From NCBI GenBank assembly GCA_015711825.1, contig JACVJD010000001.1, positions 333 through 64,332 on the forward strand: 64,000 nt of DNA, read 5' to 3'. The stretch's first letter is position 1, and each line of letters starts with the position of its first letter. This document shows positions 2,350-61,970 of the stretch, piece by piece. Source of the stretch: Candidatus Solincola daggyaiensis (GTDB lineage: Bacteria; Actinomycetota; Geothermincolia; Geothermincolales; RBG-13-55-18). The translations under genes and the position numbers were made by a program. The notes under the pieces were generated by a model. It worked only from the letters and a program-made list of their open reading frames with translations. It was not told where the DNA came from and made no database searches.

Positions 2350-3050
2350 CTCTTCTCCTCTCCCATCCGTCCCACGTCGGGACGCCTTAGATAGAGCGGC
2401 AAGAGCTCGTAGGGGTCCGCGATGTCTCCGCGCTCCGCGGCCTCGCGACACAGCCGCGCCAGCCCCCCCGCTCCCGGAGGCTCGCTCGCCGCCACCACAA
2501 GTCCTTGAGGCCAGACATGCGCATAGGCGTCTATAGCGGTGCCGGTGAGAACCACCTCTCCATGCGCGCGCTCCAGACATATCGCCAGATCGGCGGCCGC
2601 CTTTTCCGGGGCGGCGACGCCGGGCTCCAGCAATCTCTCCAGGCCGCCGTCCCCGATGCCGTAAGCGGCGTAATAGACCTCACCCCTGCGTGCGTCCATG
2701 GCCACGAACGCCTCGCGGGCGGAAATCCCGATCCCCGCCGCCCTCACCGCCAGGCTTTCCGGCGCCACCAGCGGCACCCCCAGGGAGAACGCAAGGGTCT
2801 TGGCGGCGGTCACCGCCACCCGCACTCCGGTGAAGGACCCGGGGCCCCTTCCCACCCCCAGAAGGGCGACGTCTTCCCTGCCTATCCCGGCCTCCTGCAT
2901 AAGGGCCTTTACCTCGGTAAACAGGCAGGCGACACGCAGATGTCCCGCGATCTCGCGCCATAGGGTTCCGCCGGGTCCCTCCAACACCAGCACCCCCATG
3001 GGGGTCGAGAGATCGAAGGCCAGCAGCCACCCCCCCCTCGAGCCGCTCAC
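2337..3050 (-). CDS. tsaB: tRNA threonylcarbamoyladenosine biosynthesis protein TsaB (YeaZ)
   Basis: WLLAFDLSTPMGVLVLEG ... GPGSFTGVRVAVTAAKTLA, the YeaZ/TsaB family. GTG start at 3048-3050 preferred over the upstream ATG at 3095; overlaps rimI start by 13 nt. Confidence 0.8.
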   Translation of the reverse strand: MSGSRGGWLLAFDLSTPMGVLVLEGPGGTLWREIAGHLRVACLFTEVKALMQEAGIGREDVALLGVGRGPGSFTGVRVAVTAAKTLAFSLGVPLVAPESLAVRAAGIGISAREAFVAMDARRGEVYYAAYGIGDGGLERLLEPGVAAPEKAAADLAICLERAHGEVVLTGTAIDAYAHVWPQGLVVAASEPPGAGGLARLCREAAERGDIADPYELLPLYLRRPDVGRMGEEKRCAW

Positions 3051-3407
3051 CGCACCTATTCCCCTTTCACCAGAAACCGCCTCGCACCGGACCATGCAAC
3101 CGTCTCAACGCCGAACCGTGGCCGGCAATCCGACGTCAAGGGGACTCGCGCATCTCTCTCACGATAGCACTCCGTCATCTGCGCCTTGACGCCGGTCCGC
3201 CTACCGCTCGCCTGTCCTCTCGCCGGGGACGGCCTTCCGGGTTGCGCCATGCGGGCCCCCGTCCTGCTTTTACCGGCCACGTCAACGCCACCATAGGCGG
3301 CGATTCCGCGCTGTCCCGATCCCTCCCCGGCCCAGGACGGGACGCTAAGAGAGCCTGGGCCGCCGTCTCCCCCCTCGAGGACACCCCTTCCCGACACCGC
3401 CATCCCC

Positions 3408-3926
3408 TCACCCCCAAGGCCTCACCGTCTGCGAACCGCCGCCCCAGGCTTCCCTCAATCCCGTCACCCTCTCCCCCCAGCTTCCGCCCAGGGGCACGAA
3501 GAGGACGCGTCTCTCCTTTTCTCCCTCGCCATACTCCATTCTCACCTCGAGGTAGGGGGGGCGGAAAAAGCCCTTTACCCTGTCGCCCCATTCCACCGCC
3601 AGCACCGCGTCTCCCTCCAGGTACTCCTCCACCCCTATCTCGTAGAGATCGAGCGGACCCTCCAGGCGGTAGGCGTCGAGGTGCACCAGGGAAAGCCTGC
3701 CCCGGTACTCCCGCAGGAGGGTGAAGGTGGGGCTGGTTACCCTTCCCTTGACCCCAAGTCCCCTGGCCATTCCCTGCACGAAGGTGGTCTTTCCGCTCCC
3801 CAGCTCACCTTGCAGCAGAAGCACGTCTCCCGGCCGCAGGGCCTTGGCCACGCGCATGCCGAGATCCCGCATCTGCGAGGCGGAGCGGGTGGTCACCTCG
3901 AGGGTATCCTCGGCGTAAGCGCTCAA
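3408..3926 (-). CDS. tsaE: tRNA threonylcarbamoyladenosine biosynthesis ATPase TsaE (YjeE)
   Basis: P-loop LLLQGELGSGKTTFVQGMARGLG and SPTFTL motif typical of TsaE. Confidence 0.8.
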   Translation of the reverse strand: MSAYAEDTLEVTTRSASQMRDLGMRVAKALRPGDVLLLQGELGSGKTTFVQGMARGLGVKGRVTSPTFTLLREYRGRLSLVHLDAYRLEGPLDLYEIGVEEYLEGDAVLAVEWGDRVKGFFRPPYLEVRMEYGEGEKERRVLFVPLGGSWGERVTGLREAWGGGSQTVRPWG

Positions 3927-5065: not shown

Positions 5066-5073
5066 GTCCTCCC

Positions 5074-5310
5074 CTAACTGGAGCATCCGGTGCAGCTGGC
5101 GGCGGTGCATGAGCTGCATCCCGAGGAGCCGGCCGAAGACCTGAAATCCCCGGAGGAGGCCGACCCGCTCTTGAAGCCGAAGGTGGAGAAGAGCTTCTTT
5201 ATCCTCTTCTTGCCGCACACGGCGCAGCGCTCCGCCTCGTCGGACATGTTGCGGGCGAAGTGCTCGAAGGTCTCGCCGCAAGCCTCGCACTTGTATTCGT
5301 AAAAAGGCAT
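5074..5310 (-). CDS. FmdB-family zinc-ribbon protein
   Basis: MPFYEYKCEACGETFEHF...CAVCG, the FmdB putative regulatory zinc-ribbon motif; Ser/Gly/Cys-rich tail. Confidence 0.75.
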   Translation of the reverse strand: MPFYEYKCEACGETFEHFARNMSDEAERCAVCGKKRIKKLFSTFGFKSGSASSGDFRSSAGSSGCSSCTAASCTGCSS

Positions 5311-5665: not shown

Positions 5666-8600
5666 ATGAGCGTGACCGCTTTGCCGCCATCGGAGCGGGA
5701 TAAAAAACGGAGGCTTTGGCCTCTGGCCATCATCGCGTTGGTGCTGGCGGCTTTCTTCCACTCCATGCTCACCCTGTCGAGGGTTCCATGGATATCGGAT
5801 ATAAAGTCATATTATTACCCTGCATGGCGCTACCTCGCCCACGCCTTCCGCTCCGGGGGGCCCTCGCTGTGGTGTTCCGGGATCTATTGCGGCTTTCCCC
5901 TTTTCGCCGACAGCGAGATGGGGCTGTTCTATCCCGTGAACCTTCTCTTCTTCCAGCTCCCGGCCACGGCGGGGTTCAACTACTGCATCATCCTGCATTA
6001 TCTTCTGGGAGGCGTTTTTACCTACATGTACTGCCGGCGCCTGCGGTTGGGCCGCTCCGCCTCCCTTTTCGCCGCCCTGCCGTTTACGCTGGGGGGGTTT
6101 TTTCTGGCACACATGGTGCACCCCAACGCCGTCGCCACCGCGGCTTGGATGCCCCTGTTCCTTTACTGCCTGGAGAGAGCTCTTTCGGAGGGAAAGCCGT
6201 CTTTCCACCTCGCGGCAGGGGGGGTGCTCGGCCTGCAGTGCCTTTCCGGCTTCTTGATGATACCGCTCATGCAGGCGTTGCTGGCTTTTTTCTATCTCCT
6301 TTCCCACTCCTTTGACGAGCAAGGCGACAGGCGCAGGTTTTTGCTCATCAACCTCGCCTGGCTCATCCTGGCGCTGGGGCTGGGGGTTTGCCTCGGCATG
6401 GTGCAGAACCTGCCCAGTTACCACCTGGTCCAGAACTCCTACCGCGCCGGCGGGCTGTCGGAAAAAGTGGCCGGTATAGGCAGCATGCCGCCCGCTCAAC
6501 TTCTGGGCATCGTGCTTCCAAGGCTTTTCGGGAGAGGCCTGGCGCAGGGGGGTTACCTGGGGGCTTGGACCTTCGAGGAGACCTACGCATATATGGGCGT
6601 ACTCCCTATCCTTTTCGCCTCCGCGGCGCTGCTGCGGCCGCGCCGCAGGCACGCCGCCTTCTTCTTCTGGATGGGGACGGTCTCGCTTTTGCTCAGCCTG
6701 GGCAGGTACGGCCTGCTCTGGTCGGCATTGCGCCACCTCCCCGGCTTCAACGTGCTCAAGGGCTCAAGCCGCTTCATCCTCACCTTCAACCTCTCCCTGG
6801 CCGTGCTGGGAGGGATGGGGTTCGAGCGCTGGCGCAGCGGAGAGTTCCCCTCCCGCATGGCGAGGTCCCTTTCCCGCGCCTGGTTGAGGGTCGCCGCCGC
6901 CGCAGCCGCGCTGGCCGCCATCCCGGTGCTCCTGTACCGCTTCGACGTCCTGGGGTTCAGGGACCTGGCGGCGGCCGCGGCCAAGCCCTTCCTGGCGGGG
7001 ATAAAGCTTCCGACGCGCCGTGTCCTCGACGGCCTGGTCTCGTTCTTCACCGCCCCGCGCCTGGACCTCCTGCTCCCTCCGGTGATGCTGGCCCTCTTCC
7101 TGCTCCTCATACGCGCCGACGGCGAGGGGGAATACGGACCCAGCCGCCTCAAGGTCTTCATCGCCGTGGGCCTTGCCGTGGTGGACGTTTTCGCCTTCGG
7201 GAACTTCGTGCTCAAGCCGGTTCCCAGGGAACGGGCGGACTTCAAGCCGCAGGTGATCGGCTACCTGAAGGAGAACGCGGGCGACGCCAGGGTGGCCCTG
7301 GCCAAAGAGCCCGGCGTGGATCGCGGCGAGTTCCCCCTCTGCTCCAACCAGCTGCTTCCCTACGGCCTCGAGGACGCCTTCGGGTTCTCCACCATCCCGC
7401 CCGCGCGCCTCGACCGCTTCCTGGCCCTGGTGAACGACCGCCCGGAGGCCTCCGCCTTCGAGCTGCTCGGCGTGGGTTTGCTCTACTCCAACCTCTCCAG
7501 GGTGCAAGGCACCACCTACGATCTGTCCGACCCCTATCCCATTCCCGGCGGCCTGGGCGCGGTGAGCTACGCCTTTCCCTCCCGTACCTCGGGGAGGGAA
7601 CTGCGCCTGCTGGTGGACGGCAGCATCCTGGAGCCGAGCGCCTCCGGACGGCTTTGCTTCAAGTTGAACTCCATCATCAACGGACGGGTGGTGAAGCACC
7701 CCGTCCTTTTCCTGCACAAGGACAGCGGCCCCGAGGAATACTTCCTCGCGGTTATCGACGCGGAGCAGACCGCCTCCTTCGAGCGCGTGCGCTTCCGCTC
7801 ACCCGGCCACGGGGAGGGGCGTGAAGCCTTGGAGATAAGGGTTCCGCTTCCCAGTTTGGGAGAGGCGGACGAGCTCATCCTCACCACCCTCTGCGACCCG
7901 GCCCTCGAGGGAACCCGAATCGCGGCCGTCACCGCCATCGACAAGGACGGGAGGCGCGTTCCCCTCACCGCCTGGCCTTCCGTGTATTGCGACGGCAAGA
8001 ACGCGGTGTACGAACTGCCAAACCGCCTCACCGAGGCATATGCGGCATGGGAGGTCTCCTGGAGCGGAAGCTGGGGGGAAGCGGTGGACCGCGCCTTCCG
8101 CGAGGACCTGGGCATGGGCGAGGTCGTCCTGGTGGAAAGCGAGATCGGCCCCGAAACGCGCAAGGCACTGACCGCCCTCTCCCCTCCCGAAAGGGAGCCC
8201 TCCATCGAGGTGGCGGAGAGCGGAGGCGACGGTATGGCCCTGCGCGTCAGGGGTGACGGCGATTTCATCCTGGTGGTCTCGCTCGATTTCATGCCCGGCT
8301 GGAGGGCCACGGTGGACGGCGAGGAGGCGCCCCTGTTTTCCGCCAACGGCTTCCTTACCGCCCTGCACATGAAGCGAGGAGAACATGTGGTGCTGCTCTC
8401 CTACCGTCCCCCCGGCTTAGCAAGCGGTGCGGCGGTGTCCTCGCTTTCCCTGGCGCTCCTCGTTTTTCTCTTCATGTTATCGAGAAGGAAGGAAGGCCGG
8501 GCGGCGGAGCCGACGAGCCTGGAGACTCCCGTGGCGAGAACAGCCGGCGGGAGCATAAGCGCCTTCTTCCCCTGCTACAACGACTCCGCCACCCTCAAGG

Positions 8601-51000: not shown

Positions 51001-51077
51001 TGGTAGCGGTGAGAGGACTTGAACCTCTGACCTCGCGGGTATGAACCGCGCGCTCTTACCAGCTGAGCTACACCGCC
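51001..51077 (-). tRNA. tRNA-Met (anticodon CAT; could alternatively be the lysidine-modified Ile2 type)
   Basis: 77 nt, cloverleaf by eye: acceptor GGCGGTG/CACCGCT, anticodon arm CGCGG-TTCATAC-CCGCG, T-arm AGAGG-TTCAAGT-CCTCT, encoded CCA. Confidence 0.8.
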
Positions 51078-51093
51078 ACGCTTTTTGAATCGA

Positions 51094-51169
51094 TGGAGCC
51101 CGCTAGCAGACTCGAACTGCTGACCCCATCCTTACCATGGATGTGCTCTACCAACTGAGCTAAGCGGGC
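51094..51169 (-). tRNA. tRNA-Thr (anticodon GGT)
   Basis: 76 nt: acceptor GCCCGCT/AGCGGGC, D-loop AGCTCAGTTGGTAGAGC, anticodon arm CATCC-ATGGTAA-GGATG, T-arm AGCAG-TTCGAGT-CTGCT, CCA. Confidence 0.85.
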
Positions 51170-56900: not shown

Positions 56901-57782
56901 GTGAAGGCGATGCGAAAAGTACGGGCTCTCATTTCACGGGAGAGACAGGCGGAGCTTGCCCTCATCGCCGTTACCGTGGTATGGGGGCTCACCTTCTCCC
57001 TGGTAAAGCGGAGCCTGGAGGAGGTCTCGCCTTTCGTCTTCATGGCTTATCGCTTCGCGTTGGCCTTCCTGGTGATGCTGGCCGTATCCGTGCGCAGGTT
57101 GAGAGACCTGGACCGGGGAACGCTCGCGGCCGGGCTTCTGCTCGGGATTTTTCTCTACGGCGCCTACTCCCTGCAGACCATAGGACTTAAATACACCTCG
57201 GCCGGTAACGCGGGCTTTATCACCGGGCTTTTCGTGGTATTCGTTCCCATACTATCCGTCGTTTTGCTGCGTAAACGCCCGGGGGTACGTTCCATCGTAT
57301 CCGTGTCCCTGGCCACCGTCGGGCTTGCCCTCCTATCTCTGCAGCCTGGACAGGGCATCAACCTCGGGGACGCCTTGGTCCTGGGATGCGCCTTCACCTA
57401 CTCCCTGCACATCATCTGCATGGACCGCTTCGTACAGCGCCACGATTTGGTGCTACTCACCCTGGTGCAGATGGGGGTGGTGGCCATCCTTCACACCGTG
57501 TCAGGGCTGTTTTTCGAGGGCTTCACCTTCCCCACCGCTTCGTTCGTGTGGATGACCATCGCCGTATGCGGCATCCTCGCCTCCGCCGTGGCTTTCTTCG
57601 TGCAGGCCTGGGCCCAGAGGGCGCTCTCACCGGTGCGCACGTCGGTGGTTTTGATCATGGAGCCGGTGTTCTCCGTCCTCTTCGGTATCCTCCTGCTTGC
57701 AGAGAGGCTATCCTGGCGCGGGTGGTTGGGCTGCGCGATCATGCTCGCCGCCATGCTCATCACGGAGATAAGACCGGAATAG
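56901..57782 (+). CDS. EamA/DMT-superfamily transporter
   Basis: 10 TM, two EamA repeats. Confidence 0.8.
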   Translation: MKAMRKVRALISRERQAELALIAVTVVWGLTFSLVKRSLEEVSPFVFMAYRFALAFLVMLAVSVRRLRDLDRGTLAAGLLLGIFLYGAYSLQTIGLKYTSAGNAGFITGLFVVFVPILSVVLLRKRPGVRSIVSVSLATVGLALLSLQPGQGINLGDALVLGCAFTYSLHIICMDRFVQRHDLVLLTLVQMGVVAILHTVSGLFFEGFTFPTASFVWMTIAVCGILASAVAFFVQAWAQRALSPVRTSVVLIMEPVFSVLFGILLLAERLSWRGWLGCAIMLAAMLITEIRPE

Positions 57783-57908
57783 GGGTCAGGTCTTGCATCT
57801 AGCCTGCCATATTATGGTATCATATTATATTGTCGCTGGCAGGAGGCCACGTCTATCTTAAAATAATGTTGAGATACCGCGGTATGCAAAATACAAGACC
57901 TGACCCCA
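57749..57908. repeat. direct repeat copy 1: 34 nt of eamA 3' end + ~125-bp AT-rich MITE-like element with terminal inverted repeats GTCAGGTCTTGCAT / ATGCAA..CAAGACCTGAC
   Basis: aligns with 60711-60870; ends conserved, centre diverged; internal 12-bp palindrome ATACCGCGGTAT and TGGTATCAT extended -10-like box. Confidence 0.8.
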
Positions 57909-58667
57909 TCAGAGGATTTTGGAGAAGAAGTCGATGGCGCGGGGGCTTTGCGGGTTGGTAAATATTGCCTCTGGTTGGCCCTCCTCCACGATGTTGCCGT
58001 CGTCCATGAAGATGAGGCGGTCCCCTACCTCTTTGGCGAAGCCCATCTCATGGGTCACCACCATCATGGTCATGCCCTCGCGGGCCAGGTCCTTCATCAC
58101 GTCCAGGACCTCCTTGACCAGCTCGGGGTCGAGGGCCGAGGTCACCTCGTCGAAGAGCATAAGGTCGGGATCCATGGCCAAGGCACGCGCGATGGCCACC
58201 CTCTGCTGCTGCCCGCCGGAGAGGTGGGCCGGGTAGGCCGAGGCCTTTTCCTTCAGCCCTACCCTCTCCAGCAGGCGGAGGGCCTTATCCTCCGCCTCCG
58301 CAGCGTCCATCTTCCTGACCTTAATGGGGGCGAGGGTGACGTTGCGCAGGGTGGTGAGGTGGGGAAAGAGGTTGAAGCTCTGGAAGACGATCCCCACTCT
58401 CTGCCGCATGGCGTTTATGTCCACCTTGTGGTCGGTGATGTCCACGCCCTCGATATATATATGACCGCTGGTGGCATGCTCGAGCCCGTTCACGCAGCGC
58501 AGCATGGTGCTCTTGCCGGAACCGCTGGGTCCCACGATCACCAGCACCTCCGAGGGCCTCACCTTGAGGTTGACCCCCTTGAGCACCTCATGGAAACCGA
58601 ACCGCTTGTGGAGATCGACGATCTCCACCATGTATTCTGCGCTCAAGCGCCCCTCCCGGGATCCCAT
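57909..58667 (-). CDS. polar amino acid ABC transporter ATP-binding protein (GlnQ/HisP-like)
   Basis: Walker [25 protein letters not shown], Walker [13 protein letters not shown]; true start may be the internal ATG at 58631. Confidence 0.9.
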
Positions 58668-58830
58668 CCTCGTCCTGCCGATACCGTTTTCTCAAGACCA
58701 TATTAACCCATATCGCGCCCCGGGCACGAAAGTCGTCCCGCGCTCGGACGCGCGCAAGTTATGCCTTTACTGAGAGCCCTCCCTCATCTTGCGGCCAAAC
58801 CCCCGGTCCAGGGCACACGCCTCCCCAGCC

Positions 58831-59610
58831 TCAATCCTTCATGGAGAGTCGGGTGGTCATGTACTGTACCAGCCTCATCAAGGGAAGGGTGATGATGAGG
58901 TAGCATAGGGCCGCGCCCATGAGAGGGGTAACGCTGGCGTATTTCCCCATCATCTCCCTGCCGCGGAAAAAGACCTCCGCCAGCCCGATGGTGGCTACCA
59001 GGGCGGTGTCCTTGAGCAACGCTATGAACTCGTTGGAGAGCGGCGGGATGACGTTTCTTATCGCCTGGGGCAGGATGATGTAGCGCATAGCCTTCAGGTA
59101 TCCCATCCCAAGGGATCTTGCCGCCTCCATCTGCCCCTTGTGTATGGACTCTATGCCGGCGCGGAATATCTCCGCCTCATACGCCGCGTAGCAGATGGTG
59201 AGGGCGATGACCCCCGCAACGAACTGGCTTAGGTTGAGCCCCATGTAAGCAAGGCCGAAATAGACGATGAAGATCTGCAGCAGAAGCGGCATCCCCCTTA
59301 TGACGTCGATATACACTGCGGCAACGAAACGGAACGGCTTGACCCTGGATATCCTCACCAGGGCCACCATTAGGCCGGCGGCCAGTATGCAGATCTCCGA
59401 GATCACGGCGAGTCTTATGGTCACCCAGAGGCCTCTCGCCACATACGGCATGGTCTTCTTGAAGATCTGCCAGTTAAAGAACTCGTCCACGAACTTCTTG
59501 CCGGCCTCGAACCTGGTGAAGAAAACCGCCAGGAAGACGACCAGCGCCACAGCCGCCAAGATGCCGACCGTCCATAATATGACCTTTAGCCTTCCGTTTA
59601 TCCCCGACAC
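58831..59610 (-). CDS. polar amino acid ABC transporter permease (HisMQ family)
   Basis: EAARSLGMGYLKAMRYIILPQA EAA-loop motif. Confidence 0.85.
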   Translation of the reverse strand: MSGINGRLKVILWTVGILAAVALVVFLAVFFTRFEAGKKFVDEFFNWQIFKKTMPYVARGLWVTIRLAVISEICILAAGLMVALVRISRVKPFRFVAAVYIDVIRGMPLLLQIFIVYFGLAYMGLNLSQFVAGVIALTICYAAYEAEIFRAGIESIHKGQMEAARSLGMGYLKAMRYIILPQAIRNVIPPLSNEFIALLKDTALVATIGLAEVFFRGREMMGKYASVTPLMGAALCYLIITLPLMRLVQYMTTRLSMKD

Positions 59611-59696
59611 CTCCTTTCAAGGCAAAAGGCCCGCACGCCTTCGCGCGCGGGCCACAAAACTGGGCATCAAGACATGGTGGGGTTCGGCGCTCTTTT

Positions 59697-60509
59697 CTAT
59701 TTCTCCCCGAACCACTTCTCGAAGATCTTGTCGTAGCTGCCGTCTTTTTTCATCTCCGCCAGCGCTTTATCGATGGCCTTCTTGAGCTGGTCGTTGCCCT
59801 TGCGGATGCCGATGCCGTACTGCTCGTCGGTCTTGATGGTGGCCACCACCTCGGTCTGGCCGCGCATCTTGCTCATGTAGGCGTTGACAGGGTAGTCGTT
59901 GAGGATGGCGTCGATTCTCCCCAGCTCCAGCTCCTGGAAGGCGAGGATGATGGTATCGTACTTGCGGATCTCCTTGATGCCCGGGATCTTCTCCGCGGTG
60001 AACTGGCCGGTGGTATCTACCTGGACCCCCACCACCTTGCCCGCGAGGTCGGCCTCGCCCTTGATCTCCGTATTGCCCTTCTTTACTGCGATGGACTGGT
60101 TGGAGTCGATGTAGGGGTCGCTGAAGTCGATCTCCTCCAGCCGCTCGTCGGTGATGGTCATGGCGGACATGATGATGTCGTACTTGTCGGCCTTCAACCC
60201 CGGGATGATGCCGTCCCATGCGGTGCTTATGATCTCGAGTTCCAGGCCGAGCCGCTTGGCGAGCTCATTGGCGATATCGACATCGAACCCTTCCGGCTTG
60301 CCGTCATCCCCAATGGACTCGAAGGGCGGGTAGGTGGTGTCGCTGCCCATGAGCAGCTTGCCTTTCTGAATGGTGGTGACGGTAGCCTCCTTCTTCTCCT
60401 CCCCTTTCGTCTCCTCTTTCTTCTCGCCGCAACCCGCCGCCATGAGGCCGACTACCAGCGCGGTTGCAAGAGCGAGTACCAACAGGGCGATAAATCCTTT
60501 CCTGCGCAT
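59697..60509 (-). CDS. amino acid ABC transporter substrate-binding lipoprotein (SBP family 3)
   Basis: lipobox LMAAGCGEKKE; ...MSAMTITDERLEEIDFSDPY... Confidence 0.85.
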   Translation of the reverse strand: MRRKGFIALLVLALATALVVGLMAAGCGEKKEETKGEEKKEATVTTIQKGKLLMGSDTTYPPFESIGDDGKPEGFDVDIANELAKRLGLELEIISTAWDGIIPGLKADKYDIIMSAMTITDERLEEIDFSDPYIDSNQSIAVKKGNTEIKGEADLAGKVVGVQVDTTGQFTAEKIPGIKEIRKYDTIILAFQELELGRIDAILNDYPVNAYMSKMRGQTEVVATIKTDEQYGIGIRKGNDQLKKAIDKALAEMKKDGSYDKIFEKWFGEK

Positions 60510-60710
60510 CTTCCCTCCTTATCCCGTTCGGCCGGCAACGCTGAAATTATATAGTCAAAGCGTAATTCACACAAATCGCCGCGGGATAAATGAATGCCCG
60601 TAAGCCCTTGAGCAAGCCGCTTGGCTTGTCTTTGCTTCTTCTCCAAGGAGTCGGGGGCAAGAGGATGACGGCGAGTGGATAGCGCTCGGTTAAGCGGGCG
60701 GCAAAGTCAC

Positions 60711-60870
60711 CGCCATGCTCATCACCGAGATAAGACCGGAATAGGAGTCAGGTCTTGCATCTATCCTTCCATATTATGGTATCATACTATATTGCTGCTG
60801 TTAGAAGGCCATGTCTGGCGAAAGGATTTGCGGAGATACCGCGGTATGCAAAATTCAAGACCTGACCCCC
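60711..60870. repeat. direct repeat copy 2 (duplicated eamA 3' end fragment + MITE-like element)
   Basis: aligns with 57749-57908; its right end supplies the last codons and stop of the 60855-61970 gene. Confidence 0.8.
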
Positions 60871-61970
60871 ACCACGCCTACCGTGCGCAGCGGGGGCCGT
60901 AGAGCGACCACGGCGTTCGCCGCTGCCTCGTCGATATCGCTCACGCATACCTCCACCGCCAGCCCCATGGAGGCGGCCATGAGGGACATCTGCGAAAGGG
61001 CGATGGGGAGGTCTATCATCCAGAAGGGCTTCTCGAGCATCTCGTAGAGGTAGGAGCGGTCCGGCTCGGCGGCCCCCACCACGGCGGCCCTCCAATCTCC
61101 GGCGGCGCCGCAGGCAAGAGCCAGTTCCCGCAAAGTCCCCTCCCGCCTGACACCGATGAAATGCCATTGCTGGGTGTTCCCGGCGCTGGGCGCGATGCGC
61201 GCGGCCTCGAAACAGGCATCCAGGGCCAGGTCAAGGGGAACGCCGGGGTCGCTTTGGCGCTTTTTCCCCATCTCTCTCAGCAATCCCGCCACGTCCTGGG
61301 TCTCGGAAGCGGAGAAAGGCTCCCTCGCCAGCTCCCGCACGCTGTAAGGGTTGTCCATGGTCTCGAGATAGGCGATGGCCTCCAGCGGCTTGCGTTTCCG
61401 GGATATCTGCAGGTAGAGCAGGTGGTCCATGTCCGCCGCCCTGACCCGCGGCTTGGGTTTGCCGAAGGGGATCACCGCCGCGACGTAGGTCTCCCTGCCG
61501 AACCCCAACGTCTCCCCCACCTCGCGCTGGTTCAGCCCTCCCACCCAGCAAGTGCCCAGGCCCGCCTCGGTCAGCCAGAGCACCACGTCCTCGGCCGCCA
61601 TAGCAACAAGGGGCAGCTCGCGCGGACGGTCGCCCTTGGCGTCGGCGCGTGGGACCGCCAGCACCAGAAACCCCGCCACGGGGGAGCGGTTCAGCCAGAG
61701 GTTGATCTTTCCCTGTGTCCCTTTATGTATCCTTTTCTTTATCCTCTCCACCCGTCCCGTGTCTGAGACCACCGTGATACCGCCCTCCGCTGCACCCCGG
61801 GTGGAGAGCGCCAGGCTCACCACCTCCCCGAGGGATGCAAAGAACGCCTGGTCGTATTCGCCCGGCAGGTACTTGCGATGGGAGCGGCGGGCGTAGAGGA
61901 CCTCCCACAGTTTCCACGGCGTTTCGGAATAGGAAAGATAGTCCCGGGTCGCGGTTTTGGTCTGCTCCAT
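60855..61970 (-). CDS. tandem nitroreductase-fold protein (SagB/ThcOx-type dehydrogenase-like)
   Basis: two nitroreductase-like halves; second carries APSAGNTQQWHFIGV; first starts ...YARRSHRKYLPGE. Confidence 0.6.
   Translation of the reverse strand: MEQTKTATRDYLSYSETPWKLWEVLYARRSHRKYLPGEYDQAFFASLGEVVSLALSTRGAAEGGITVVSDTGRVERIKKRIHKGTQGKINLWLNRSPVAGFLVLAVPRADAKGDRPRELPLVAMAAEDVVLWLTEAGLGTCWVGGLNQREVGETLGFGRETYVAAVIPFGKPKPRVRAADMDHLLYLQISRKRKPLEAIAYLETMDNPYSVRELAREPFSASETQDVAGLLREMGKKRQSDPGVPLDLALDACFEAARIAPSAGNTQQWHFIGVRREGTLRELALACGAAGDWRAAVVGAAEPDRSYLYEMLEKPFWMIDLPIALSQMSLMAASMGLAVEVCVSDIDEAAANAVVALRPPLRTVGVVGVRS

Follow-up and report, generated by a model that had tools for sequence, protein, structure and literature searches.

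The window, that is, the whole 64-kb stretch of DNA analysed here, harbours two copies of a 126-nt element, one on either side of an amino-acid ABC transporter operon. Both end in the arms of a terminal inverted repeat (TIR). The genes and sequence features of the locus are the following:

56901-57782, plus strand: EamA/DMT transporter gene (Pfam match)
57782-57907: element copy 1, 126 nt, between the convergent EamA and ABC-ATPase genes, recognised by its inverted repeat and fold
57782-57795, plus strand: left TIR core of copy 1, GGGGTCAGGTCTTG, which fits the TIRYT motif GGGGWSAS
57807-57817 (copy 1) and 60769-60779 (copy 2): sub-terminal palindrome CCATATTATGG
57874-57885 (copy 1) and 60836-60847 (copy 2): sub-terminal palindrome ATACCGCGGTAT, by the other arm
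57894-57907, minus strand: right TIR core of copy 1, with TATTTTGCAT, the arm's conserved inner half, adjoining it on the inside
57909-60509, minus strand: native amino-acid ABC transporter operon between the two copies (Pfam matches), with genes for the ATPase (57909-58667), the permease (58831-59610) and the SBP (59697-60509)
60546-60574, minus strand: promoter-like site of the SBP operon itself, with a -35 box TTGTGT (60574-60569), a 17-nt spacer and a -10 box TATAAT (60551-60546)
60707-60743, plus strand: EamA relic, the last 11 codons and stop of the gene (original at 57745-57781), copied with the element; no ORF attached
60744-60869: element copy 2, 126 nt, same orientation as copy 1, left arm beginning GGAG and not GGGG
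60744-60757, plus strand: core of the left arm in copy 2, GGAGTCAGGTCTTG, with a single mismatch
60856-60869, minus strand: right arm core of copy 2, with the minus-strand reading GGG GTC AGG TCT TGA
60855-61970, minus strand: nitroreductase-family gene, its 3′ end running into copy 2

The 14-bp ends (GGGGTCAGGTCTTG/CAAGACCTGACCCC) are perfect in copy 1, and the single mismatch of copy 2 lies in its left arm. An earlier note on this DNA had proposed imperfect 14-bp TIRs; the repeats are present, while the imperfection does not apply to the outer 14 bp of copy 1. The strings that it gave, GTCAGGTCTTGCAT and ATGCAAAAT[A/T]CAAGACCTGAC, were located at their places in both copies. Since the flanking GGGG and CCCC belong to the inverted repeat, the element is 126 nt long, with the ends GGGGTCAGG.../...CCTGACCCC. 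What had been described as a 6-nt insertion in one TIR is actually the diverged inner half of one arm (CATCTAGCCTG vs TATTTTGCATA); in relatives the inner halves of both arms read nnTTTTG[C/G]AT. Three of the arms read GGGGTCAG, in agreement with GGGGWSAS (at 57782 and, on the minus strand, at 57907 and 60869), and the fourth, at 60744, reads GGAGTCAG. These four arms in the window compare with 0.34 expected by chance.

Fold prediction, suggested as a check of the element RNA, returned a long hairpin (z-scores of -2.6 to -6.1), with -50 to -53 kcal/mol and z-scores of -5.3 and -6.1 for copy 1. As in a REPIN, two inverted units form a hairpin of ~100 nt, in which pairing occurs only between the two arms. 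The palindrome ATACCGCGGTAT was confirmed in both copies. Its ATAC-N4-GTAT stem is kept at loci L023, L039, L047 (two copies), L061, L085 and L096, with loops that vary in the subfamily (CGCG, CCCG, TCCG, CCGG, TCTA), and judging from its sequence it is a possible protein-binding site. The second palindrome, CCATATTATGG, is identical in L047b and has imperfect variants in L119 (CCATAACATGG), L096 (CCATAATCTGG) and L061 (CCATAATCTGC). In L119 and L047b the palindrome of this type continues with ATGGCAAGG/C, resembling the transposase start ATGGCAAGRCC, an observation that is mentioned here as a lead only. Between the conserved ends the centre of the two copies has diverged, as had been noticed, at 24 positions and without indels instead of at about 40 nt; 17 of the 24 differences fall in 57831-57872. 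Copy 2 was also found with 100% identity in an independent contig (L121).

Both copies are closely tied to the ends of genes. In the case of copy 1, the EamA gene and the element overlap by one nucleotide, the G of the stop codon (TAG, 57780-57782) being also the first G of the element, and the variable C-terminal tail of EamA homologues is missing from the window protein. On the other side, 1 nt separates the element from the stop codon of the ATPase gene, whose product is 3 aa shorter than in the relative L128, which has a 283-nt spacer and both gene tails at the position of copy 1. Copy 1 has taken the place of the spacer between the EamA and ATPase genes and has shortened the tails of both. 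With respect to copy 2, the claim that it provides the stop codon of the 60855-61970 gene proved correct: on the minus strand the last residues G-V-R-S and the stop codon TGA (60857-60855) lie inside the element, and the TCA of copy 2 corresponds to ACA in copy 1. Nitroreductase-like homologues end in G[IMLV]R* at 369-370 aa and the window protein ends in GVRS*; copy 2 supplies the V-R-S-stop. Stop-codon donation of this kind recurs across the element family, whose members persist mainly just downstream of genes, with the stop codon often abutting an arm or sitting inside it.

The direct repeat formed by the two copies takes in another 37 nt on the left, within the terminal part of the EamA gene (57745-57781 equals 60707-60743, with 2 mismatches), giving a repeated unit of 163 nt. 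Two independent insertions are therefore not supported: the point at which copy 1 meets the EamA gene end recurs with copy 2, which is thus a segmental copy of the copy-1 locus. In relatives, the position of copy 2 is occupied by an 8.6-kb block of one-carbon and regulatory genes that is absent from the window; the relative JABLXL01 shows the same gene order next to EamA, without the element and with the block. According to this synteny the ABC operon is native and not a cassette. The segment 60556-60706 matched none of the loci compared.

The occurrence of the element outside the window was investigated in a genome collection with the pattern GTCAGGTCTTG-N75-105-CAAGACCTGAC. Ends paired at 75-105 nt were found in more than 120 stretches from ~96 assemblies and, among the matches listed, at least 12 phyla, with a chance expectation of ~2 as estimated from the collection size. 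As the search fixed an 11-mer, its apparent invariance is partly built in; an independent RAYT-anchored search also recovers the arm core. Position information amounts to ~1.3-1.75 bits at the three Gs flanking the searched 11-mer and to ~0 further out, and arm conservation ends past position +21. Additional copies, which the earlier note had called for, are present at the level of the family: the repeat is dispersed outside genes as single, dimeric or clustered copies, often several per MAG and between unrelated genes, and in related MAGs of the Actinomycetota 2-4 copies are spread over different contigs. The same ends and sub-terminal motifs recur at unrelated Actinomycetota loci (L023, L039, L047, L061, L085, L096, L119).

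The genes next to these elements are unrelated (105 Pfam families among 124 ORFs), and no protein family common to the neighbours was found among the flanking ORFs. Flanking gene pairs were convergent in 33 cases, co-directional in 41 and divergent in 5, the divergent arrangement being depleted. Genes located between element pairs are assorted accessory genes, with no transposases among them. No target-site duplication was detected, flank identity in 96 elements being equal to that of shuffled pairings. Literature text matches to the 10- and 11-mers were restricted to unrelated primers. In the plasmid collection, a blastn search with a Burkholderiales member gave no match, and tblastn with the transposase described below identified 10 plasmids only, the best of them a decayed copy in Legionella adelaidensis with one degenerate end. 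Among 2.9 million viral contigs there was one match, in a Mu-like region colonised by short dimers, so that phages are not the usual carriers.

An autonomous parent sharing these ends was identified in other genomes. At locus L035, positions 2554-3408 encode a 284-aa protein with a Pfam Y1_Tnp match (E = 5.8e-10) and a C-terminal HTH, and the motif is present on both flanks. The protein scores 80 bits against NCBIfam NF047646 ("REP-associated tyrosine transposase"), exactly the cut-off. The 12-mer GGTCAGGTCTTG was then scanned, with one mismatch allowed, across 80 metagenome loci with transposase homologues. It occurs on the plus strand ~44 nt before the ATG in 60 of these loci, on the minus strand, mostly 10-55 nt past the stop codon, in 54, and on both sides of the gene in 47, with <0.1 such matches calculated to occur by chance. 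In these genomes, the inverted repeat thus brackets a Y1 (HUH and Tyr) transposase with a C-terminal HTH. The transposase alignment keeps the HUH motif (H60-Y61-H62) and Y119, all invariant; from its position in the invariant RY..LNP motif, Y119 is presumed to be the catalytic tyrosine. The homologues carry PF13384 and PF13518, which we take to be HTH_23 and HTH_28. A PDB sequence search with the transposase gave only a weak match, to E. coli TnpA_REP (4ER8, E = 0.17). Rubrivivax gelatinosus DSM 1709, Collimonas rhizosphaerae H4R21 and Methylophilus luteus are examples of TIRYT carriers in culture. In 20 of 25 full-length elements the TTG of the 14-mer is followed by a 17-nt spacer and a TAnnnT box located 6-8 nt before the ATG.

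Neither the 64-kb window nor the Actinomycetota loci compared contain a TIRYT gene. Among the 80 loci, no cognate transposase with the exact inner arm of the window was found, the nearest being L168 (CTTTTTGCAT). The arms expected around a matching Y1_Tnp/NF047646 gene would read GGGGTCAGGTCTTGnnTTTTGCATAC.

The best explanation, to which we assign a probability of roughly 0.8, is that both copies are TIR dimers, non-coding derivatives of a ~0.9-kb TIRYT-encoding element. In such a dimer, a short non-coding centre would link the two TIRs of this insertion-sequence-like element. In its full form the element encodes a TIRYT (TIR-associated tyrosine transposase), which is a Y1 HUH enzyme of the IS200/RAYT type, extended at the C-terminus by an HTH. 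Dimers may arise by internal deletion of a full element. A possible example is L087, which combines an R end and an L end close to those of the full element L193, has no ORF, and shows in its interior a weak tblastn match (E about 0.8) to the transposase C-terminus. By analogy with REPINs and with the enzyme family, the copying of dimers would probably depend on a TIRYT acting in trans from another place in the genome, most likely on single-stranded DNA in which the two arms are paired into a long hairpin. Single-strand Y1 chemistry of this type would leave no target-site duplication.

With the copies read as TIR dimers, that is, as MITE/REPIN-like derivatives, the earlier proposal of a MITE-like, non-autonomous mobile-type element holds, given the conserved ends, the freely drifting centre and the parent with the same ends. 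An ordinary cut-and-paste MITE is not supported, as target-site duplications are lacking and the enzyme linked to these ends belongs to the Y1/HUH and not to the DDE type. In the absence of a TIRYT gene from the window and from the Actinomycetota loci compared, current mobility in this genome is unproven. The window has two copies only, of which copy 2 arose by segmental copying and not by clean transposition, and both may be relics. In the parts of the TIRYT literature available to us, no experimental demonstration of TIRYT-element transposition was found.

The group has been named TIRtron or TnpA_REP subclass 2.1 in the sections available to us of two papers (PMC3733652, PMC6006769), which both define the motif GGGGWSAS. 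In the first, TIRYT genes are described as flanked by TIRs that share GGGGWSAS and form repeat families of singles, dimers and clusters (Di Nocera, De Gregorio & Rocco 2013, PMC3733652). The second places most TIRYTs in TnpA_REP subclass 2.1, with HTH_23, HTH_28 or Bac_DnaA_C tails (Quentin et al. 2018, PMC6006769). The elements reported here resemble these descriptions, as far as the accessible text goes, in the TIR GGGGTCAG, in its bracketing of a ~284-aa Y1/HUH transposase with a C-terminal HTH and in the dispersal of TIRs between genes as singles, dimers and clusters. They differ in their host, a MAG of the Actinomycetota close to Ca. Solincola, whose lineage those sections do not mention, and in the conserved core of 14 nt (GGGGTCAGGTCTTG), whose span of at least 12 phyla is wider than described there. 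Unlike a full TIRtron, the window has no TIRYT gene, and its subfamily has sub-terminal palindromes of its own.

A close likeness exists to the REPIN/RAYT system (Bertels & Rainey 2011, PMC3116915), which also comprises two inverted units forming a ~100-nt hairpin; these elements are not autonomous, their copying is presumed to rely on a Y1 transposase that acts in trans and is usually present as a single copy, and they lie between genes, mostly after them, without target duplication. However, classical REP units are themselves short imperfect palindromes of 20-40 nt tagged GTAG or CGTC, whereas the window arms are plain terminal repeats, untagged and not self-complementary. IS200/IS605 elements and PATEs share the Y1 HUH transposase, the single-strand "peel and paste" mode and the lack of target-site duplication; IS200/IS605 elements lack TIRs, which the window elements have, and possess a different sub-terminal hairpin at each end and insert by a specific tetra- or pentanucleotide. 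DDE MITEs (Correia, ERIC, Tn3-derived TIMEs) are likewise small, with TIRs, a hairpin-forming transcript and insertion near gene ends, but they generate target-site duplications and have ends like those of DDE insertion sequences, neither of which applies here.

Beyond the identification as TIR dimers, it can be proposed that the elements are not just passive relics: gene neighbourhoods would be reshaped by the TIRYT machinery, or by replication errors that the hairpin provokes at the arms, through the copying of an arm along with neighbouring host DNA and the promotion of adjacent deletions. The family would then shape gene ends and operon boundaries generally and across phyla. We regard this extension as unlikely. 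According to it, the in-frame stop that the arm GGG GTC AGG TCT TGA provides would explain why this sequence is tolerated where genes end. In the window, the 37-nt EamA piece would be an instance of such copying and the loss of the 8.6-kb block an instance of such a deletion; short tandem duplications of an arm with its flank, seen in many loci, would likewise reflect the copying.

A structured non-coding RNA, a bidirectional terminator or an mRNA-stabilising hairpin, kept for its RNA function, appears improbable, although the strong hairpin on both strands, the location of the family downstream of genes and the depletion of divergent intergenic regions would all suit it. In the sections available to us, REPs are reported to act as terminators or mRNA-stabilising hairpins (PMC3733652), which also counts in its favour. 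However, the interior is not conserved while the ends are invariant, and conservation is symmetric on both strands, as expected of DNA ends. There is no U-tract after the stem on either strand, and no terminator-like site was called at either copy. A search of Rfam 15 (4227 models, gathering threshold) gave no match in the window or in the elements of 18 other loci, nor was there any match across 57500-61100 at E ≤ 10. Resemblances of the 14-mer to SRP-RNA, tRNA-like and SECIS structures were dropped, as the motif forms the base of an inverted repeat in DNA and finds no support in Rfam.

The earlier note also described a promoter-like AT core, corresponding to CCATATTATGG and TGGTATCAT (57815-57823), and suggested that copy 2 may drive the transporter operon. 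The extended -10 TGGTATCAT is indeed present in both copies on the plus strand, whereas the minus-strand TATAAT occurs only in copy 1 (57824-57829) and reads TATAGT in copy 2, the very box invoked for the SBP gene. It is true that full elements carry a promoter in one arm; nevertheless, a promoter-bearing insertion that drives the ABC operon is very unlikely. A consensus promoter scan returned two weak sites in copy 1 and none in copy 2, which does not exceed chance (1.4 +/- 1.3 in shuffles), the extended -10 string is not a conserved feature among subfamily members, and the window arms lack the -35/17 nt/-10 geometry of full elements. Moreover, the SBP operon keeps its own promoter-like site, with the -10 box 37 nt upstream of the ATG, and this box and the downstream leader are conserved in the element-free relative L128. 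Under the TIR-dimer interpretation, what resembles a promoter in the arms may be a remnant of the one that serves the transposase gene; in full elements, the -35 box is formed by the TTG of the 14-mer.

A purely local segmental repeat, generated by rearrangement of the locus and without any mobile-element identity, was considered because of the 37 nt of EamA coding sequence within the repeat, the coincidence of copy 2 with the 8.6-kb deletion relative to relatives and the restriction to two copies in the window. It is highly improbable as a full explanation, and is refuted as such by the recurrence of the same ends and sub-terminal motifs at unrelated loci of other Actinomycetota MAGs, in a family of more than 120 stretches overall, and by the bracketing of a transposase gene by the same ends; it survives only as the origin of copy 2.

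Tn3-type repeats have a conserved inner ...TAAG, and integron attC sites an R″/R′ core (RYYYAAC ... GTTRRRY), in promoterless cassette arrays next to intI. A DDE-type MITE (for example a Tn3-family derivative) or an attC-like site flanking cassettes would fit the GGGG ends, the inverted repeats, the element pairs around single accessory genes at several loci (PEBP, SDR, AbiE, HepT) and the window pair around a three-gene operon, but is extremely unlikely: target-site duplications, an inner ...TAAG, conservation past +21 and an AAC/GTT core are all lacking, the arms bracket a Y1 transposase and not a DDE enzyme, and synteny identifies the ABC operon as native. Tn3-type ends and integron attC were ruled out by both the sequence and the associated enzyme.

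The element is real but ordinary, as it belongs to a class that has been described, though little studied, in many bacterial phyla, and the basic picture of bacterial miniature elements stays unchanged. For the uncultured Actinomycetota lineage, an unannotated repeat gains a concrete identity, tied to the poorly studied TIRYT class. With respect to annotation, ORF ends such as ...GVRS* can come from an element, and TIR-dimer hairpins flag rearrangement-prone spots. For REP/RAYT biology, the relevant points are a 14-nt arm core common to at least 12 phyla, an arm that also serves as the -35 box of a transposase gene that appears to be leaderless, and flanking genes that repeatedly end within the arm.

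The two copies of the element lie on either side of an amino-acid ABC transporter operon, in the order EamA gene, copy 1, ATPase, permease, solute-binding protein (SBP), copy 2 and nitroreductase-family gene:

56901-57782, plus strand: EamA/DMT transporter
57782-57907: element copy 1, 126 nt, GGGG/CCCC included
57874-57885: palindrome ATACCGCGGTAT in copy 1
57909-58667, minus strand: ABC ATPase
58831-59610, minus strand: permease
59697-60509, minus strand: SBP
60574-60569 (-35 TTGTGT) and 60551-60546 (TATAAT), minus strand: SBP promoter-like site, 17-nt spacer, 37 nt before the ATG
60744-60869: element copy 2, 126 nt
60836-60847: palindrome ATACCGCGGTAT in copy 2
60855-61970, minus strand: nitroreductase-family gene

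Elsewhere in the window, adjacent tRNA-Met (CAT) and tRNA-Thr (GGT) genes occupy 51001-51169 (minus strand).

Both copies described in the earlier note are real, although the GGGG/CCCC belongs inside the element, and the direct repeat formed by them runs 37 nt further left into the EamA gene end, which makes the repeated unit 163 nt long. Previously called imperfect, the outer 14 bp (GGGGTCAGGTCTTG / CAAGACCTGACCCC) form an inverted repeat without mismatch in copy 1 and carry a single change (GGAG) in copy 2; beyond these four arms, the 64-kb window has no match, even with one mismatch allowed. An apparent 6-nt insertion in one arm is explained by divergence of the inner arm on one side. The strings ATACCGCGGTAT and TGGTATCAT were all recovered, as was the difference between ACA in copy 1 and TCA in copy 2, while the minus-strand TATAAT is present in copy 1 but reads TATAGT in copy 2. 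The centre has indeed diverged while the ends are conserved, but the copies differ at 24 positions and not at about 40: 2 in the 37-nt flank, 4 in 57782-57830, 17 in 57831-57872 and 1 in 57873-57907. Fold prediction, as proposed earlier, gave a long hairpin on both strands (-39 to -53 kcal/mol, z-scores -2.6 to -6.1).

A scan for GTCAGGTCTTG-N75-105-CAAGACCTGAC in one genome per species, for which about 2 chance matches were estimated from the size of the collection, yielded at least 120 stretches in at least about 96 assemblies, so that further copies do exist at the level of the family. The matches listed include Actinomycetota, Acidobacteriota, alpha-, beta- and gamma-Proteobacteria, Thermodesulfobacteriota, Desulfobacterota, Planctomycetota, Spirochaetota, Bacillota, Nitrospirota, Elusimicrobiota, Methylomirabilota, Patescibacteria and Armatimonadota, five cultured isolates (Rubrivivax gelatinosus, Collimonas, Methylophilus, Rheinheimera and Vibrio) and several MAGs with 3-4 copies on different contigs. 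At their ends, family members share GGGGTCAGGTCTTG and, after it, a less strongly conserved mATTnTGmC; from lineage to lineage the interiors show no relation, and position information falls to zero outside the GGG. Neither a target-site duplication nor a common neighbour was found at family elements, the adjoining genes being unrelated housekeeping or accessory genes. Flanking gene pairs among the matches listed were convergent in 33 cases, co-directional in 41 and divergent in 5; divergent intergenic regions are avoided and elements are biased towards the 3' side of genes. An Rfam search with the window and family elements gave no match, and the element is almost never carried in the plasmid and phage contig collections. 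The window-like subfamily comprises Actinomycetota MAG loci L023, L039, L047 (two copies), L061, L085, L096, L119 and L088. After one arm comes [C/G]ATAC-N4-GTAT, with constant stem and variable loop; after the other, in several members, come an 11-nt inner arm, nnTTTTG[C/G]AT (the subfamily norm), and then CCATATTATGG or an imperfect variant.

Additional arms are frequently nested or tandem. Short tandem duplications, in which each unit combines the terminal 7-14 nt of an arm with 8-10 nt of its flank, adjoin many family members (e.g. L017 1754-1810, L077 918-955, L045 6080-6170 and L033 1700-1800), and for this reason the arms appear prone to local copying errors. Some same-genome copies share 7-10 nt of identical sequence outside both arms (L091 1362-1462 and L117 2333-2433; L068 5540-5617 and 7152-7230), as would result if mobilisation sometimes takes along DNA beyond GGGG/CCCC or if certain targets are preferred. 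The viral contig L131 (IMGVR_UViG_3300029286_003067) has a Mu-like head/tail cluster (gpT, Gp36, Gp37, tail tube) with dimers of about 50 nt in nearly every intergenic space (arms at 1873-1990, 2712-2762, 5068-5118, 6215-6265 and 7197-7208), suggesting recent proliferation into this prophage. In a Burkholderiales MAG (L116 5236-7977), arms separate antitoxin-like, Uma2 endonuclease and HepT genes and a ParD/ParE-like pair, with the look of a cassette array.

In other genomes the family ends are linked with a gene for a Y1/HUH transposase; no such gene occurs within the 64-kb window. A Syntrophobacteria MAG locus (L035) encodes a 284-aa ORF with the motif on both sides, a Pfam Y1_Tnp (IS200-like) match, a C-terminal HTH and a score of 80 bits, equal to the cut-off, against the NCBIfam "REP-associated tyrosine transposase". 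It has more than 8000 homologues, many named RayT or REP-associated tyrosine transposase by their sources; the alignment shows no variation at the HUH motif or the tyrosine, and HTH hits on some homologues were taken to be HTH_23 or HTH_28. A homologue starts 75 nt past an arm in Vibrio (L094), and a relic of the transposase C-terminus lies between two arms in L089. Of 80 metagenome loci with homologues, 60 have GGTCAGGTCTTG (one mismatch allowed; calculated chance expectation below 0.1) on the coding strand, some 44 nt ahead of the ATG; 54 have it past the stop codon on the other strand, mostly at a distance of 10-55 nt, and 47 have both. It follows that the autonomous unit is arm, transposase gene and arm, of about 0.9 kb. 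L087 illustrates how dimers arise: its two termini closely resemble those at the right and left of the full element L193, no ORF lies between them, and the interior has a weak tblastn match to the transposase C-terminus (E about 0.8).

In Di Nocera et al. [quoted passage not shown] The account of TIRYTs in Quentin et al. (2018, PMC6006769) places most of them in TnpA_REP subclass 2.1, with C-terminal HTH_23, HTH_28 or Bac_DnaA_C, and quotes the TIR consensus GGGG[AT][CG]A[CG]. Because the ends bracket a Y1 transposase elsewhere and GGGGTCAG fits this consensus, the window copies are, judging from sequence, TIR dimers of the TIRYT/TIRtron class. They are not REPs in the classical sense, as their arms lack both the GTAG and the CGTC tag and do not form palindromes on their own; by analogy they would work like REPINs. 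Burkholderiales members (L006 955-1051, L007 3807-3904, L081 4304-4401, L098 2005-2102 and L103 4634-4731) carry TGTGGATAA / TTATCCACA in each arm, a DnaA-box-like 9-mer, of note given the Bac_DnaA_C-like C-terminal domain mentioned for some TIRYTs in PMC6006769.

In the assembly GCA_015711815.1, whose contigs match the window at 99.9-100% identity, each copy is on a contig of its own with unique flanks. The NCBI names of homologous proteins point to Actinomycetota near Candidatus Solincola. The gene order of the window recurs without the element in a relative, JABLXL01 (loci L124 and L128; identity 78% for the nitroreductase, 93% for SBP). Host sequence was replaced at both window sites. At the first, between EamA and the ATPase, JABLXL01 has a spacer of 283 nt and longer EamA and ATPase proteins (by 7 and 3 residues); in the window the EamA stop TAG overlaps the first G of copy 1, and the ATPase stop TGA lies 1 nt from its other end. 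This spacer is rearrangement-prone even without the element, since in L128 about 140 nt are duplicated there in tandem, repeating the ATPase gene 3' end (7009-7075 and 7150-7215). At the second, an 8.6-kb block of JABLXL01 between the SBP and nitroreductase genes (891-aa protein, NuoF-like protein, DUF5981, GAF histidine kinase, MTHFR and two response regulators) has no counterpart in the window (60556-60869 versus L124 11113-19709 and L128 9713-12894). In its place are 150 nt (60556-60706) without a match among all loci fetched, a 37-nt EamA relic and copy 2. Copy 2, which derives from the copy 1 locus because it carries the EamA-element junction, is a segmental copy linked to this 8.6-kb loss. 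The 40% divergence of its centre, against about 5% in flank and arms, speaks less for simple drift than for a mosaic, perhaps the outcome of conversion from a third copy. At its right, the junction falls on codons native to the nitroreductase gene (G-[IMLV]-R), a coincidence that may reflect microhomology.

The donation of a stop codon by copy 2 is real: nitroreductase-like homologues (369-370 aa) end in ...VG[VLM]G[IMLV]R*, whereas the window protein (371 aa) ends in ...VGVVGVRS*, its terminal codons GGG GTC AGG TCT TGA being the arm. Gene ends inside an arm recur across the family; among the 120 genome loci listed, the TGA of GTCTTGA serves as the stop of 14 flanking ORFs, in 3 loci on both sides of one element, and many further ORFs stop 0-10 nt outside the arm.

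The proposal that copy 2 drives the transporter operon appears unsupported: a consensus promoter scan gave only two sites, weak and both in copy 1, which is not above shuffled sequence, and nothing in copy 2; SBP has its own promoter-like site, whose -10 box and downstream leader are kept in the element-free relative; and the extended -10 string is not conserved in other subfamily members. Of 25 full elements with the usual spacing, 20 have a -35-like hexamer that opens with the TTG ending the 14-mer, then TAnnnT after exactly 17 nt and the ATG 6-8 nt beyond, a distance implying a leaderless or nearly leaderless transposase mRNA. Dimers would inherit the TTG and AT-rich remnants, hence the promoter-like look of the arms; those of the window do not have this -35/17 nt/-10 geometry. 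A CCATnnnATGG motif in L119 and L047b runs on into ATGGCAAGG/C, which resembles the transposase start ATGGCAAGRCC, a lead hinting that the motif is a remnant of that region.

From what is described for IS200/IS605 and RAYT enzymes, dimers would be copied in trans from single-stranded DNA with the arms paired, and the HTH may read the lineage-specific inner arm. The reading as a miniature mobile-type element was correct, the element being real, with shared ends, family-wide and transposase-linked in other genomes; from an Actinomycetota lineage, it adds a new member to the known, little-studied TIRYT/TIRtron repeat class.
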